Source: Escherichia phage phiEC1
DNA length: 64,000 bases
Strand: one strand, 5' to 3'
Sequence record: KY608965.1
Below the pieces are notes generated by a model that was not told the DNA's origin, did no database searches, and worked only from the letters and a program-made list of their open reading frames with translations. Shown piece after piece: positions 3,806 through 49,651 of the stretch (within the stretch, counting starts at the first letter, position 1; each line of letters opens with the position of its first letter). The position numbers and the translations under genes were made by a program.

Positions 3806-5610
3806 TGAAACAAAATATTAAAATTGGTAACGTCGTTGATGACGGACAAGGCGATTACCTTCGTCGAGGTGGTGAAAAGATAAATGAGAACTTTGACGAA
3901 ATCTATTATGAATTAGGTGATGGTGAAGTTCCTTATGCCGCTGGTGCATGGAAGACTTATGATGCGGCTGATGGTCTTAATCTTAAGGCTGCTTGGGGTA
4001 AATCTTATGCAATTAATACTACTTCTGGGCGAGTTTCGGTAAATCTTCCTAAAGGGACAATTGCAGACTATAATAAAGTTATTCGTGCTCGTGACGTATT
4101 TGCAACTTGGAACATTAACCCTGTTACTTTAATTCCGGCAAACGGAGACACGATTAAAGGTTCTTCATCTCCAGTAGAAATTAACGTTCAGTTCTCTGAT
4201 TTAGAATTAGTTTATTGTGCTCCTGGACGTTGGGAATACATCAAGAACAAACAAATTGATAAAATAGTTAGCTCTGACATTAGTAACGTTGCTCGTAGAG
4301 AATATCTGGTTGAAACCCAAGGTCAGACCGATTTCATGGATGTTTTTAACGGGACCTCTTATAACGTTAACAACATTCGCGTAAAACATCGTGGCAACGA
4401 ATTGTATTATGGTGATGTATTCAGTGATAATAGTGATTTTGGTTCCCCAGGCGCTAATCCTGGTGAACTGGTTGCACTTGATGGATTTAATATTAGATTA
4501 CGCCAACCATGTAATGTTGGGGACACTGTACAAATTGAGACATTCCTAGATGGTGTTTCTCAGTGGCGTAGTTCATATACTCGTCGCCAAGTTCGCATTT
4601 TAGATAGTAAATTGACTGCTAAAAAGTCTATTGATGGAAGTATTTACGTCACTGATTTGAGTACGTTCCGATCTATTCCATTTACAGCATTTGGTATTAA
4701 TCCTACAGAACCACCTAACCCGAATTCGTTAGAAGTTCGCTTCAATGGTATTCTCCAAGAATTAGCTGGTACTGTTGGAACTCCTATTTTCCGTTGTGAA
4801 GGTGTGGATGCTGATTCTGAAGAGTCATGCGCTAATCTCGGTGGGACATGGACTCAATCATATACAGATTATGCGATTGAATATACTGATAATATCCCTA
4901 GCGCAATTCTGTTTGACCGTCAATTTGAAGACCAGGACATTATTACCATCACATGGTTTAATAACGATTTAGGAACTCTTCTTGAAATGGAAGAAATCCT
5001 TGATGTCGCTGATGAGAAATATGTTTCTCAAGGGTCTAACATTGAAATTACCGGTGACGTTGCATTAACCGATTTCGATAAAATTGGATGGCCTAATGTA
5101 GAACCTGTTCCTAAGTACGAACGTGAATTCTCGACTATCTCAGCAATATTTGATACAATTTATCCTGTCGGGACTATTTACGAAAATGCGGTTAACCCTA
5201 ATAATCCGGCCACTTATTTAGGTTTTGGTTCGTGGAAAATTTGGGGACAAGGCAAAGTATTAGCAGGTTGGAATGATGACGCGTCGGATCCTAATTTTGC
5301 ATTAAATAATAATGACCTTGACATCAACGGTAACCCTACTCATACCGCAGGTGGTACTGTTGGTGTAACAACTATCACATTAGAAAATGCCGATTTACCA
5401 GCTACACAAACAGATGAAAAGGTTCTTATTTCTGATGATAATGGTACGGTAATTATAGGCGGTTGCCAATATGACCCAGATGCAGAAGGTCCTATTTACA
5501 CTAAATATCGTGAAGACCATGCAAAGACTAACGGATCTCATGTTCCAGCGCGTTCTATAACTAATATTCAGCCATCTATAACTGTATACCGTTGGGTAAG
5601 GATTGCATAA
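3805..5610 (+). CDS. 10: Baseplate wedge protein gp10
   Basis: 601 aa (T4 gp10 is 602 aa); TAATG overlap with gp9 stop; synteny. Confidence 0.9.
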
Positions 5611-6269
5611 TGACTGTACTTAATACAAAGGCGGGAGTTATTTCCCGTCATGCTGATTTTTTGAATTACAGAAAAAATCCAGCTCAAATTGATGTTTTAA
5701 ACAACCAAGCTGTAGGTTCCGTGACTATTTCTCAGTTAGCTCGTGGTTTTTATGATGCTAACGTAGAATCTGCAATAAATGATGTCCATAATATGGCACG
5801 AGCTGATATTGGTACTGTTGTAACAAACACTTCAGGCATATCGCCTGAAGGTACAGCACAAGTTGATTATTGGACTTTTTCTGGTGATGTTCTCGACGAT
5901 ACTTTGGCCCCTGGAACGCCGGTCGTTATTAACGTATTTGGACTTGCTGTTAAAGCAACAATTGGTATGACTGATAACGAATTAACTGCACAAGTTCGTA
6001 TAGCTTTACAAGAAGCCATTGCTAATCAAATCGCTATTTCTTCTTATAAAGACCATCCATCCGAAGGTAATAAACTTCAGGTGACATATTTAGATAACCA
6101 ACGTCATGTGTTGCCAACATATGCTTCGTTTGGTGTAACAATTTCGCAAGAAATTTTGTCTGAAGCAAAATCCGGATACGGAACATGGAATTTATTGGGT
6201 GCCCAAACGGTTACTCTTGATAACCATGATACTCCTACCGTTTTCTACCACTTTGTGAGAGCCTCATGA
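5610..6269 (+). CDS. 11: Baseplate wedge protein gp11 (short-tail-fibre attachment)
   Basis: ATG at 5610 overlaps gp10 stop (TAATG); 219 aa as in T4 gp11; track ORF from 5592 starts at a non-ATG codon. Confidence 0.88.
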
Positions 6270-47085: not shown

Positions 47086-47382
47086 TTACATAAGAAGCAA
47101 ACGTTCGACCGGAGTACCATCAACCGAAATTACTTTATCAAGGCGGAAAGAACGCCACTGACCTAACTTGGTATCGAATGCTCGAACTGATTCACGAGGT
47201 TCATAACGAACTTCTGTTGCTGGATTGTTATTGACATATTTGACTTCAAGTTCATCGCGCGAAGCAAACATAGTGCGTACATCACCGTTAGCCTTTTCAA
47301 ATACAACACAATGAACGCCTACAGACAGAATAGTTTTAATACGTTCACGAAGAACCATAGTTTCTTGTTCAGTTAAAATCAT
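47086..47382 (-). CDS. Hypothetical protein between cd and 31
   Basis: 98 aa from ATG at 47382 with GGTGA Shine-Dalgarno; track ORF starts at GTG 47394. Confidence 0.55.
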   Translation of the reverse strand: MILTEQETMVLRERIKTILSVGVHCVVFEKANGDVRTMFASRDELEVKYVNNNPATEVRYEPRESVRAFDTKLGQWRSFRLDKVISVDGTPVERLLLM

Positions 47383-47383
47383 A

Positions 47384-47965
47384 TTATTCACCACAAAAGT
47401 TTCGGATTTGTTCCCAATTCAGAGAACGAAGATTATTACGAGAGTACTGAATTACTTCAATACCAGCTTGTTTTAGAATATCTGCCCAATTTTCAGGAGA
47501 TCGGTCGTATAATTCTGCGTATACAACCTTTTTAATACCTGACTGCGTAATAGCTTTAGTGCAATCAGGACACGGAGAAAGCGTAGTATATAACGTAGCA
47601 CCTTCAATAGAATTACCTTTACGAGCGGCAAACAAAATTGCATTCAATTCTGCATGGATTTCATTATTAGCAGACCATGCACTATGAGCAGCTCGATGTT
47701 CTTTGGCTAAAACAAAATTATCTACCCGTCCAAATGCTGTAGTGCCTTCTTTATGTCCAGCAACGATGACTGGGATTGGTTTATTCTTCAACCAACCATT
47801 TTCAGATGCATGTTCGCAACAGTTAACGCCACCTGCAGGTGAACCGTTATATCCAGTAGAGATAATGCGTCCATCTTTTTCAATGACGGCACCAACTTTC
47901 CATGAACAACATTTTGATTCTTGAGAAATCAGATATGCAATCTGAAGGTATGTGCTAGCTTTCAT
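47384..47965 (-). CDS. cd: dCMP deaminase
   Basis: 193 aa; zinc-binding deaminase motifs HAELNAI and PCPDC; matches recalled T4 Cd. Confidence 0.95.
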   Translation of the reverse strand: MKASTYLQIAYLISQESKCCSWKVGAVIEKDGRIISTGYNGSPAGGVNCCEHASENGWLKNKPIPVIVAGHKEGTTAFGRVDNFVLAKEHRAAHSAWSANNEIHAELNAILFAARKGNSIEGATLYTTLSPCPDCTKAITQSGIKKVVYAELYDRSPENWADILKQAGIEVIQYSRNNLRSLNWEQIRNFCGE

Positions 47966-48957
47966 TATTGAACCTTATTAATATAAGTTAACAGCTCTTT
48001 AGTTTGTTCCCAACTGATGCACGCATCGGTAACGGAAACGCCATAGGACATATTATCAGAAATTTTTTGATTTCCTTCATGTAGGAACGATTCTATCATA
48101 ATTCCTTTGACCAAATCATTAGCTGCTAAATTTTTACCAATACCAATTTGATTGCTATAATGCCCATCAGCGTTTGCATGGCTACAGTCAACCATTACAT
48201 AATGATTCAGACCTACTGCCCTTGCTTTGTTAGAAGCTTCTTGAATATCAGAAGAATGATAGTTCGGGCCGTTGGTCCCGCCACGCAATACGATATGCGT
48301 ATTCTGATTACCTTCAGCTTCAACAATGCCTACAGTACCATCGACGTCCATACCCATATACCGATGAGGCCAGGCGGCACTATACATCGCGTCTGTAGCT
48401 ACTTTAATAGAACCATTGGTTGCGTTCTTGAAGCCTACGCACATCGGTAGACCTGAAGCAATTTCACGATGTGTCTGACTTTCAGTCGTACGGGCGCCAA
48501 TAGCAACCCATGAGAAAATACCAGAAAGATACTTAATCGTGAATGGGTCTAATACTTCAGTTGCTAATGGAAGTCCCATACGTAGAAGTTTACGACACAA
48601 TGTTCGTGCAACTATAAGACCGTGGTTCATATCAAAACTTCCGTCAAGATATGGATCATTTACAAGACCTTTCCAACCTACGGTAGTTCGAGGCTTTTCA
48701 AAATAAACGCGCATCACTAACAGAACATTAGGAAGACGAGTTTGAAGTTCAGCCAGACGTTTGCCGTATTCAACAGCAGCAATAGGGTCATGAATTGAAC
48801 AAGGACCTACAACAATAAGTTTGCGTGGGTCTTCACCGTTCATAATCGAATTAACTTGTTCGCGATGAGAAGCCACTTGTGATGCGTAAGCTTCCGACAA
48901 AGGAATAATCTCAGCCAGTTCTTTTGGAGAAATAAGTTTTCCGACGACAGGTAACAT
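47965..48957 (-). CDS. 3-deoxy-D-arabino-heptulosonate-7-phosphate (DAHP) synthase, class I (AroG/AroF/AroH-like)
   Basis: 330 aa; blocks GPCSIHDP, MRVYFEKPRTTVGWKGL, IGARTTESQTHRE, VGFKNATNGS, IVLRGG…PNY, SHAN, ESFLHEGNQ, ITDACI matching recalled E. coli AroG; stop overlaps cd start (TAATG). Confidence 0.93.
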   Translation of the reverse strand: MLPVVGKLISPKELAEIIPLSEAYASQVASHREQVNSIMNGEDPRKLIVVGPCSIHDPIAAVEYGKRLAELQTRLPNVLLVMRVYFEKPRTTVGWKGLVNDPYLDGSFDMNHGLIVARTLCRKLLRMGLPLATEVLDPFTIKYLSGIFSWVAIGARTTESQTHREIASGLPMCVGFKNATNGSIKVATDAMYSAAWPHRYMGMDVDGTVGIVEAEGNQNTHIVLRGGTNGPNYHSSDIQEASNKARAVGLNHYVMVDCSHANADGHYSNQIGIGKNLAANDLVKGIMIESFLHEGNQKISDNMSYGVSVTDACISWEQTKELLTYINKVQ

Positions 48958-49077
48958 AACAATCCTTAGGAGATATAAACAGATTCTGATTCAACAATAC
49001 CTTTAACCGGATTAGACAGGCTAAGTTGGTAGTGCTCAGATTTATGACCATTCTCGATAGTAATGAGATAGCTCTCA

Positions 49078-49314
49078 TTATAGTGTTCCATATACTCGAG
49101 TTGCTTCAACAAGACCATCACTGCCTAATTTAAGGCTAGTAATCTGGTCACCATCTTTAGGATTAACGATTATGAGAAAAGAACGTGGAGATTCTTGAAT
49201 AACTCGTAATGTTGCATCCTGGAAACGTTCAGACACTTTATTGATGAGTGCTTGAGCAAATTCTTTTACTTTAATCTGAAATTCGTGTACTGTAATTGGG
49301 GTTTCACTTAGCAT
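49078..49314 (-). CDS. Hypothetical early protein
   Basis: 78-aa ORF with ATG; early promoter 49344..49373. Confidence 0.55.
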   Translation of the reverse strand: MLSETPITVHEFQIKVKEFAQALINKVSERFQDATLRVIQESPRSFLIIVNPKDGDQITSLKLGSDGLVEATRVYGTL

Positions 49315-49343
49315 TTCGATTTCCTCATTGTGTTGGTAGAGTT

Positions 49344-49373
49344 ATAGTATCACAACTCCACCATGTTGTAAAC
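49344..49373 (-). promoter_or_regulatory. Early promoter upstream of ORF 49078..49314 (and probably the DAHP synthase-cd operon)
   Basis: On - strand GTTTAC-N18-(GTTGTGA)TACTAT. Confidence 0.65.
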
Positions 49374-49375
49374 CA

Positions 49376-49651
49376 TTAAATTGCTTTGCATTCAATTTTT
49401 TGTGTACCGAAATTGATATCACATTGGATAACTAAATCGCCGTCAAGATCAAATACCACTATGACGTGTGCAGACCCAGGGAGAAGAGTAATAGCAATAG
49501 AATCTACTTGGTCTGGGAGTAAAGCATTGAGTACATGAGTTAGTTGAGCATGAACTCTGAGTTCGGCTGCATTATCAAGCACTTCAAACATATTATTAGC
49601 AATAATCTGACTGAAGACTACCTTTACAATTTCAGAATAAGTTGGGAACAT
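49376..49651 (-). CDS. Hypothetical protein
   Basis: 91-aa ORF with ATG. Confidence 0.5.
   Translation of the reverse strand: MFPTYSEIVKVVFSQIIANNMFEVLDNAAELRVHAQLTHVLNALLPDQVDSIAITLLPGSAHVIVVFDLDGDLVIQCDINFGTQKIECKAI

Follow-up and report, generated by a model that had tools for sequence, protein, structure and literature searches.

DAHP synthase gene between cd.2 and cd in phage phiEC1

We analysed a stretch of 64,000 nucleotides from Escherichia phage phiEC1 (sequence record KY608965.1; the whole stretch is called the window here), in which a gene for a DAHP synthase (DAHP is the 7-phosphate of 3-deoxy-D-arabino-heptulosonate) lies on the minus strand between the small gene cd.2 and the dCMP deaminase gene cd (Table 1). 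phiEC1 is a T4-like phage of the RB69 group (Mosigvirus), and the 2.7-kb region around the gene is 99.9% identical to that of Escherichia phage CAU_ECP01. The order of the genes is pseT - cd.4 - ORF227 - cd.3 - cd.2 - DAHP synthase - cd - 31.1 - 31 - rIII, within a nucleotide-metabolism block to which frd, td, nrdAB and cd belong. As detailed below, the protein resembles the Tyr-type enzyme AroF of Escherichia coli; its catalytic site is intact, and its inhibitor pocket is altered at positions that suggest a loss of feedback control.

The DAHP synthase reading frame starts with ATG. Because an in-frame TGA is found 12 codons upstream and no start codon lies in between, the short N-terminus of the protein is genuine. 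A counterpart of its Shine-Dalgarno sequence, TAAGG, precedes the orthologues in Kanagawavirus. At the 3' end, the sequence TAATG (47963-47967) joins the gene to cd, with the A at 47965 common to the DAHP synthase stop codon and the cd start codon. This arrangement may permit translational coupling but does not demonstrate any, since cd has its own Shine-Dalgarno sequence AAGG, 7 nt upstream of its start; 'coupled' thus refers to the overlap only. An earlier reading of this DNA, made from the sequence alone (the sequence-only reading), had given the position, strand and length of the open reading frame exactly, and the overlap with the cd start inside the early pseT-cd gene block that it described is borne out by the sequence. 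Six of the seven motifs it listed were exact, while its 'ITDACI' is really VTDACI, at residue 309. It had also described the protein as about 7 residues shorter than AroG at the N-terminus and about 13 at the C-terminus. This split was wrong: in the alignment to AroG (350 aa), the phage protein lacks 8 N-terminal residues, about 7 in internal gaps and about 5 at the C-terminus.

Table 1. Features of the DAHP synthase region in the phiEC1 window
Feature	Position	Strand	Basis
DAHP synthase gene (type I-alpha, AroF-like), 330 aa + stop	47965..48957	-	Open reading frame list, hidden Markov models, conserved catalytic residues, structure model
Shine-Dalgarno AAGGA, 5 nt 5' of the DAHP synthase ATG	48963..48967	-	Sequence reading
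cd, dCMP deaminase, directly 3' of DAHP synthase	47384..47965	-	Pfam dCMP_cyt_deam_1, E = 1.6e-26; named cd in relatives
Shine-Dalgarno AAGG of cd	47973-47976	-	Sequence reading
Right copy of the repeat ATAATGA (DAHP synthase stop / cd start overlap)	47962..47968	-	Sequence and junction comparison
Left copy of the 7-bp direct repeat ATAATGA (cd.2 stop)	49075..49081	-	RB69/mar005P1 junction comparison
Remnant, 3' end of a second, foreign cd.2 (DUF7320); left part of the cassette	48966..49077	-	Translation identity, Pfam
Resident cd.2 (DUF7320), directly 5' of the cassette	49078..49314	-	Pfam DUF7320, E = 7e-36; aligns to RB69 and T4 cd.2
Candidate T4-type early promoter TTTACA-17-TG-TACTAT, between cd.3 and cd.2	49344..49372	-	Promoter scan
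cd.3 (DUF7355)	49376-49651	-	
Gene 31.1, 102 aa	47086-47394	-	Pfam WYL_2 (Sm-like SH3 beta-barrel)

Family, catalytic site and fold of the phage enzyme

By sequence, the assignment of the protein to the type I-alpha DAHP synthases is beyond doubt. It matched Pfam PF00793 (DAHP_synth_1) with E = 5e-75 (252 bits against a cut-off of 25.5), as well as the NCBIfam models TIGR00034 (aroFGH equivalog; 428 bits, cut-off 173) and NF009395 (455 bits, cut-off 343), whereas it scored below the cut-offs of the AroG- and AroH-specific NCBIfam models. The nearest solved structure was E. coli AroF (6AGM, E = 5e-105), and the identity to the three E. coli isozymes was 51% for AroF, 47% for AroG and 43% for AroH. 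By these comparisons AroF, and not AroG, is the nearest of the E. coli isozymes. The sequence-only reading, which had recognised the protein from AroG, was therefore right about the family and not about the nearest isozyme; its identification of a phage-encoded class I DAHP synthase is confirmed by scores above the curated cut-offs and by the intact ligands.

The catalytic site was examined at 14 metal, phosphoenolpyruvate (PEP) and erythrose-4-phosphate (E4P) positions (C61, R92, K97-T100, G163-R165, K186, R234, H268, E302 and D326 in AroG numbering), and all 14 are kept in the window protein and in 25 of 25 sequences of the phage clade. The metal ligands are C53, H260, E289 and D311, corresponding to Cys61, His268, Glu302 and Asp326 of AroG (likewise in all 25 sequences), and the residues that contact PEP and E4P are R83, K88-T91 (the KPRT motif), G154-R156, K177 and R225. 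Missing metal or PEP ligands in a proper alignment, which the sequence-only reading had named as evidence against its claim, were thus not encountered. In an AlphaFold 2 model (predicted local distance difference test, pLDDT, 91; predicted template-modelling score, pTM, 0.91) the protein forms a (beta/alpha)8 barrel with a beta6a/6b hairpin (strands 198-203 and 209-214) and an N-terminal extension that is present but shortened. The model superposes on AroG, the Neisseria meningitidis enzyme (NmeDAH7PS) and yeast Aro4 with template-modelling (TM) scores of 0.93-0.96, the value for AroG 8E0U being 0.96. We predict that the phage enzyme is catalytically competent and condenses PEP and E4P to DAHP.

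Along its full length the phage enzyme is 51% identical to E. coli AroF (PDB 6AGM/6AGL). The two have the type I-alpha (beta/alpha)8 fold in common, use the same residues as metal, PEP and E4P ligands, and carry a Gly at the position that separates Tyr-type from Phe-type enzymes. The phage enzyme differs in an N-terminal arm that is about 9 residues shorter, two short internal deletions, a shorter C-terminus and replacements at the inhibitor contacts (P150I, Q151K, D155G, S180P and F209Y in AroG numbering).

KDO8P synthase (KdsA) has a KANRS-type motif where DAHP synthase has KPRT. This family was considered and rejected, as the NCBIfam search at E <= 0.001 returned DAHP synthase families only and both KPRTT and the metal-binding Cys are present. 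KdsA, the other branch of PF00793, is what the mention of lipopolysaccharide in the phiC120 paper implies.

Distribution of the gene among T4-like phages

By tblastn the gene was found in 212 phage records, with at least 80% of the protein covered in every record and an identity of 99% or higher in 100; many of these copies are annotated as aroF, AroG or DAHP synthase. The protein is 100% identical in Shigella phage Shf125875 (Mosigvirus utam; gp195), p000v, phiC120, the O157 typing phages 3, 6 and 13, and others. Within Mosigvirus, about 139 records carry the gene and about 11 have an uninterrupted cd.2-cd junction, namely RB69 (two), ECO111 5-P, JK36, JK42, moha and mar005P1 (five). RB69, in which cd.2 directly adjoins cd, is the exception within its own genus. 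The gene is also absent from T4 and from Dhakavirus. The T4 order is pseT - cd.5 - cd.4 - cd.3 - cd.2 - cd.1 - cd, and the sequence-only reading was right that T4 has only cd.1-cd.5 at this place, the T4 record holding no DAHP synthase.

Orthologues with 56-77% identity occupy the same slot between pseT and cd in Kanagawavirus (PEi26, Entb_45), Winklervirus (X20), Marfavirus (PWKp18) and Bragavirus (PM2). The family is PHROG 5045, in the category 'moron, auxiliary metabolic gene and host takeover', and its members from Edwardsiella phages PEi20/PEi26, Klebsiella phage KLB31, Serratia phage X20 and Proteus phage PM2 have the pseT-cd slot and the pocket signature described below in common with the phiEC1 gene; the Mosigvirus copy differs in that it appears to have come on a cassette together with a fragment of the donor's cd.2. 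Olsen et al. listed the DAHP synthase of Mosigvirus as an auxiliary metabolic gene (AMG) of unknown function, and a 2025 paper proposed a role in aromatic amino-acid supply for the copy of Kanagawavirus KLB31. The sequence-only reading had called the gene atypical for this phage group and novel. This does not hold in view of the 212 records, the majority state in Mosigvirus, the synteny in four other genera, PHROG 5045 and the AMG listing in the literature. Since a common orthologue stands at the same position in T4-like genomes, an observation named beforehand as decisive against novelty, the gene is known and not novel.

Being a homologue of a host enzyme that is carried by phages and is variably present among close relatives, the gene can, on gene content, be classed as an AMG. 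The classical AMGs are the pentose-phosphate and photosynthesis genes of cyanophages, which encode pathway-controlling steps. The phage DAHP synthase resembles them as a host-derived, flux-controlling enzyme in a lytic phage, variably present among relatives, and differs from them in that it would act on the shikimate pathway of enterobacterial hosts.

Several other records came up in the searches. Aeromonas phage HJ05 (79 kb), which is unrelated, encodes at 4899-6062 a DAHP_synth_1 protein of 387 aa (38% identity). Its gene neighbours a methyltransferase gene and an Asn-synthase-like one, and all three are annotated as hypothetical; this is apparently an independent acquisition in another context, and that context was uninformative. 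Two aroF-like genes with 45-48% identity are present on metagenome-binned contigs of 13 and 24 kb labelled Acinetobacter phage MD-2021a, which may be bacterial contamination; the isolated Acinetobacter T4-like phages showed no such gene. The top match of the exhaustive search, P0121 of the representative library (799 aa), has two tandem DAHP synthase domains and was matched in two stretches (46% identity). Escherichia phage ST2 (OM982647.1), a T4-like phage of 171 kb that is syntenic with Mosigvirus, is filed under Guernseyvirinae; Kagunavirus, and looks mislabelled.

The inhibitor pocket and the N-terminal arm

In the E. coli enzymes, Q151/Q152 and S180/S181 bind the main chain of the inhibitor and D155/D156 stabilises the site, and the AroG substitutions P150L, S180F and F209A/S cause feedback resistance (PMC9529685). 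AroF from which Ile11 was deleted is feedback-resistant as well (PMC10729320). A literature search for the AroF mutant N8K found nothing. In the window protein, I141, K142 and P171 replace the Pro, Gln and Ser of the inhibitor site, and Y200 replaces F209. These changes (P150 to I, Q151 to K, S180 to P and F209 to Y in AroG numbering) are fixed in 24-25 of the 25 phage-clade sequences, whereas among the 98 nearest cellular homologues 91-98 have P, Q, S and F at the respective positions. The N-terminal arm is also reduced, to 7-11 aa in the phage sequences compared to 15-52 aa in the 98 cellular homologues. AroG residues 2-9, D6 and D7 among them, have no counterpart in the phage proteins, and the arm is without the 9 residues that precede Ile11 in AroF. 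The intact inhibitor site of AroF (Gln152, Ser181, the conserved Pro and the N-terminal arm) is therefore absent from the phage protein. An unbiased scan of the whole protein found only five columns that separate the phage from the near-cellular sequences (AroG 151, 155, 180, 209 and 223), and all five lie within regulatory elements of the allosteric site.

The allosteric site thus appears no longer to resemble one that binds Tyr, Phe or Trp. With its N-terminal arm lost and other residues in place of those that contact the main chain of the inhibitor, the phage enzyme is predicted to be insensitive to feedback by aromatic amino acids. In view of the altered pocket positions and the literature on them, the label 'Tyr-sensitive' in many GenBank records is probably wrong. 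The sequence-only reading had weighed the shortened termini only when it suggested that the enzyme may be deregulated; this suggestion is strengthened, chiefly by the pocket substitutions. The phage enzyme is naturally changed at the same positions as the engineered feedback-resistant alleles AroG P150L, S180F and F209A and AroF delta-Ile11. In contrast to these alleles it combines several changes and uses other residues (Ile, Pro, Tyr and Lys), and its insensitivity is only predicted.

Origin and selection

The nearest cellular proteins are only about 50-55% identical; among them are enterobacterial AroF and assorted sequences of Planctomycetota, Kiritimatiellota and Pseudomonadales. The 25 phage-clade sequences were monophyletic in 100 of 100 neighbour-joining bootstraps, within the group that contains AroF. 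The G+C content at third codon positions (GC3) of the DAHP synthase gene is 30%, which is phage-like and similar to that of the neighbouring phage genes, and the ratio of nonsynonymous to synonymous substitution rates (dN/dS) against the orthologues of four other genera is 0.14-0.21, with dS saturated. The monophyly, the distance to cellular proteins, the GC3 and the dN/dS together argue for an old, selectively maintained phage gene and not for a recent capture from E. coli. The gene appears to descend from an AroF-like (Tyr-type) bacterial enzyme and to have been long resident in T4-like phages.

A cassette with low diversity in Mosigvirus

In RB69 and mar005P1 the cd.2-cd junction is uninterrupted and runs from ...ACTATAATG directly into AAAGCTAGC...; in the window, exactly 1,113 bp lie between the two copies of ATAATGA. 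The insert begins with 120 bp that encode SYLITIENGH...GIVESESVYIS and are thus no random spacer. This translation is 51-55% identical to the C-terminus of cd.2 from Kanagawavirus and Marfavirus, compared to 30% identity to the window's own cd.2, and with 28.7 bits, which exceeds the cut-off, it matches positions 43-76 of the 78 in Pfam DUF7320 (the C-terminal third). The cd.2 of Kanagawavirus stops 9 nt short of the DAHP synthase start. The foreign cd.2 remnant and the Kanagawavirus arrangement indicate that the cassette was imported from another T4-like phage with the order cd.2-DAHP synthase-cd, by a left crossover that was illegitimate. Some GenBank records annotate the cd.2 remnant as a hypothetical protein of 41-50 aa.

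Nucleotide diversity (pi) was computed across seven Mosigvirus genomes. It was 0.002 for the cd.2 remnant and 0.005 for the DAHP synthase gene, compared to 0.028 for 31.1, 0.035 for cd.2, 0.050 for cd and 0.18 for cd.3. Diversity in the cassette (47965-49077) is therefore about 10-fold lower than in the neighbouring genes cd, cd.2 and 31.1 (flanks 47086-49651). Since the remnant, which is non-coding, varies as little as the gene does, the low values point to recency and spread by recombination and not to constraint on the protein, which suggests a recent recombinational spread of the cassette. Taken with the ratio of about 139 to about 11 records, this sweep-like pattern is suggestive of a selective advantage, without proving one. 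We had initially favoured an ancestral presence of the gene with a deletion in RB69, since the gene is syntenic across genera; this scenario is opposed by the foreign cd.2 remnant and the 10-fold lower diversity.

The neighbouring cd.3 is strongly mosaic, being 70.7% identical to that of LF82-1 compared to 99.6% for Shf125875, and Mosigvirus seems to harbour two or more divergent alleles of it.

Expression and neighbouring genes

The candidate early promoter is conserved nearly base for base with the cd.3-cd.2 interval of T4, where the T4 record notes the early promoter Pe133295. It is predicted to drive cd.2, the DAHP synthase gene and cd. A scan of the same strand found no terminator-like site between this promoter and cd, and together with the conserved promoter upstream this makes early co-transcription of the DAHP synthase gene with cd likely.

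Although its product matches Pfam WYL_2, gene 31.1 is named 'tail fibers protein' in many GenBank records, probably a mis-annotation propagated via PHROG 10657. In several phage records cd carries the label 'ribD riboflavin biosynthesis protein', 'tadA' or 'tRNA-specific adenosine deaminase', which are apparent artefacts of automated annotation. The PADLOC defence models gave no match.

Possible roles of the phage DAHP synthase

DAHP synthase is the gatekeeper of aromatic-compound biosynthesis. It is described as catalysing the first, rate-limiting step, and the host isozymes are under TyrR/TrpR repression (PMC10729320). We favour, with somewhat better than even confidence, the interpretation that the gene encodes an early-expressed, feedback-insensitive, AroF-derived DAHP synthase that holds the entry to the shikimate pathway open. 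The gene would be transcribed early together with the dCMP deaminase gene, from the conserved promoter upstream of cd.2. With host transcription shut off and the host isozymes repressed and feedback-inhibited in the infected cell, the phage enzyme would keep the flux-controlling entry step open. The supply of chorismate would thereby be sustained for aromatic amino acids and/or for chorismate-derived cofactors such as folate and quinones. The identity of the gene, its intact active site, the altered pocket, the synteny, the purifying selection and the recent spread of the cassette were observed here; the expression, the insensitivity and the benefit are the parts that we infer.

Several observations weigh against this interpretation. 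Among 150 representatives of 50%-identity clusters from the wider family, the canonical PQDSFT signature was present in only 56, although the catalytic residues are still conserved, and 22 of the 150 have P at position 180. As the pocket varies in this way, phages are not alone in having such substitutions, and what these do to regulation is unproven. (The invariance of Q151 and S180 in cellular enzymes, which we had considered, is true of the 98 nearest homologues and fails in the 150 representatives.) Within the phage clade, 11 of the 16 pocket columns are invariant, compared to 86 of 300 columns elsewhere (p = 0.0015), and the model still shows the beta6a/6b hairpin; this conservation fits a pocket that still works as well as a dead one. 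The few amino-acid changes within Mosigvirus make up 4 of 7 and 5 of 8 nucleotide differences, with no obvious depletion against synonymous ones, and the gene is missing from RB69 and several other Mosigviruses. In addition, our literature searches for experiments on phage DAHP synthases returned mentions in genome annotations only and no assay, expression or knockout study.

It is unlikely that the protein is an ordinary Tyr-sensitive isozyme of the AroF type, as the GenBank labels have it, which would add regulated DAHP synthase capacity. AroF is the nearest isozyme (51%) and the best PDB match, the residue equivalent to AroG S211 is Gly, which AroF and the near homologues also have, the model keeps the regulatory hairpin, and the Lys at the Q151 position could in principle contact the carboxylate. 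However, Q152 and S181 of AroF have become K and P, the P150 equivalent is Ile and the arm is truncated, and single changes at such sites abolish inhibition in the E. coli enzymes. The retained hairpin would also suit a pocket rebuilt for another effector (a chorismate-pathway intermediate, a nucleotide or a phage-specific metabolite), by which a signal of the phage's own would govern shikimate entry. The pocket residues are fixed across genera at 56-77% identity and are more conserved than the remaining protein, and the lining of the pocket has gained a positive charge (K142) and a hydroxyl (Y200). We nevertheless regard this as rather improbable: no candidate ligand was identified, the conservation may be structural because the pocket segments abut active-site loops, and these substitutions are also found, one at a time, in scattered cellular lineages. 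We give as little credence to a fuller version, in which the pocket was re-tuned under purifying selection to a non-aromatic or phage-specific effector and forms a phage valve on shikimate flux, the benefit of which swept the 1.1-kb cassette through Mosigvirus.

Another proposal, for which the chances also seem poor, is that the enzyme acts as an irreversible sink for E4P (and PEP) and pulls the non-oxidative pentose-phosphate pathway towards pentose phosphates for nucleotides and cytosine arabinose. Phage arabinosylation draws on ribulose-5-phosphate, which is converted via arabinose-5-phosphate (A5P), arabinose 1,5-bisphosphate and arabinose 1-phosphate to UDP-arabinofuranose (PMC13326640). 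A phage A5P isomerase is also present in many lineages with the DAHP synthase (Mosigvirus, Winklervirus, EcS1, SdyM_006 and Proteus phiP4-3), and the position within the block of frd, td, nrdAB and cd would fit. However, the isomerase is present without the DAHP synthase in RB69, mar005P1, JK36 and about 57 Acinetobacter phages, and DAHP synthase is found in 25 Klebsiella phage records, whereas isomerase matches occur in fewer than three Klebsiella records. A link to cytosine arabinosylation was considered because RB69-group phages modify their DNA with arabinose and 'arabino' is part of the name of DAHP. A strict coupling was rejected, as the published pathway contains no DAHP synthase and the co-occurrence with the A5P isomerase fails in both directions; the sink is kept as a weak rival. 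It is very improbable that the gene is a neutral or selfish passenger of a hyperplastic region with no role in infection. The gene is absent from RB69, T4 and Dhakavirus, and the region is mosaic, with the neighbouring cd.3 only 71% identical between close relatives; yet the dN/dS of 0.14-0.21 across genera, the active site intact in 25 of 25 sequences, the coverage of at least 80% in 212 of 212 records, the synteny in five genera and the near fixation in sequenced Mosigvirus all speak against a passenger.

Significance

The existence of the gene was already known, its product is identified here as AroF-like, and the claim of novelty is unsupported. What our analysis adds, from sequences and models, is a residue-level case for deregulation, the anatomy of the cassette and a sweep-like pattern of diversity. 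Most RB69-group coliphages carry the gene, including model phages and therapy candidates (BASEL Bas46/47, the O157 typing phages and the LF82 phages). If the enzyme is indeed feedback-insensitive, it would be a natural, multiply 'fbr' (feedback-resistant) DAHP synthase, relevant to shikimate engineering, which now uses single-site mutants of AroG and AroF. It would also be a clear example of a gut phage that forces a biosynthetic pathway of its host open at the committed step. The sweep-like way in which the cassette has spread suggests a real and measurable benefit to the phage.

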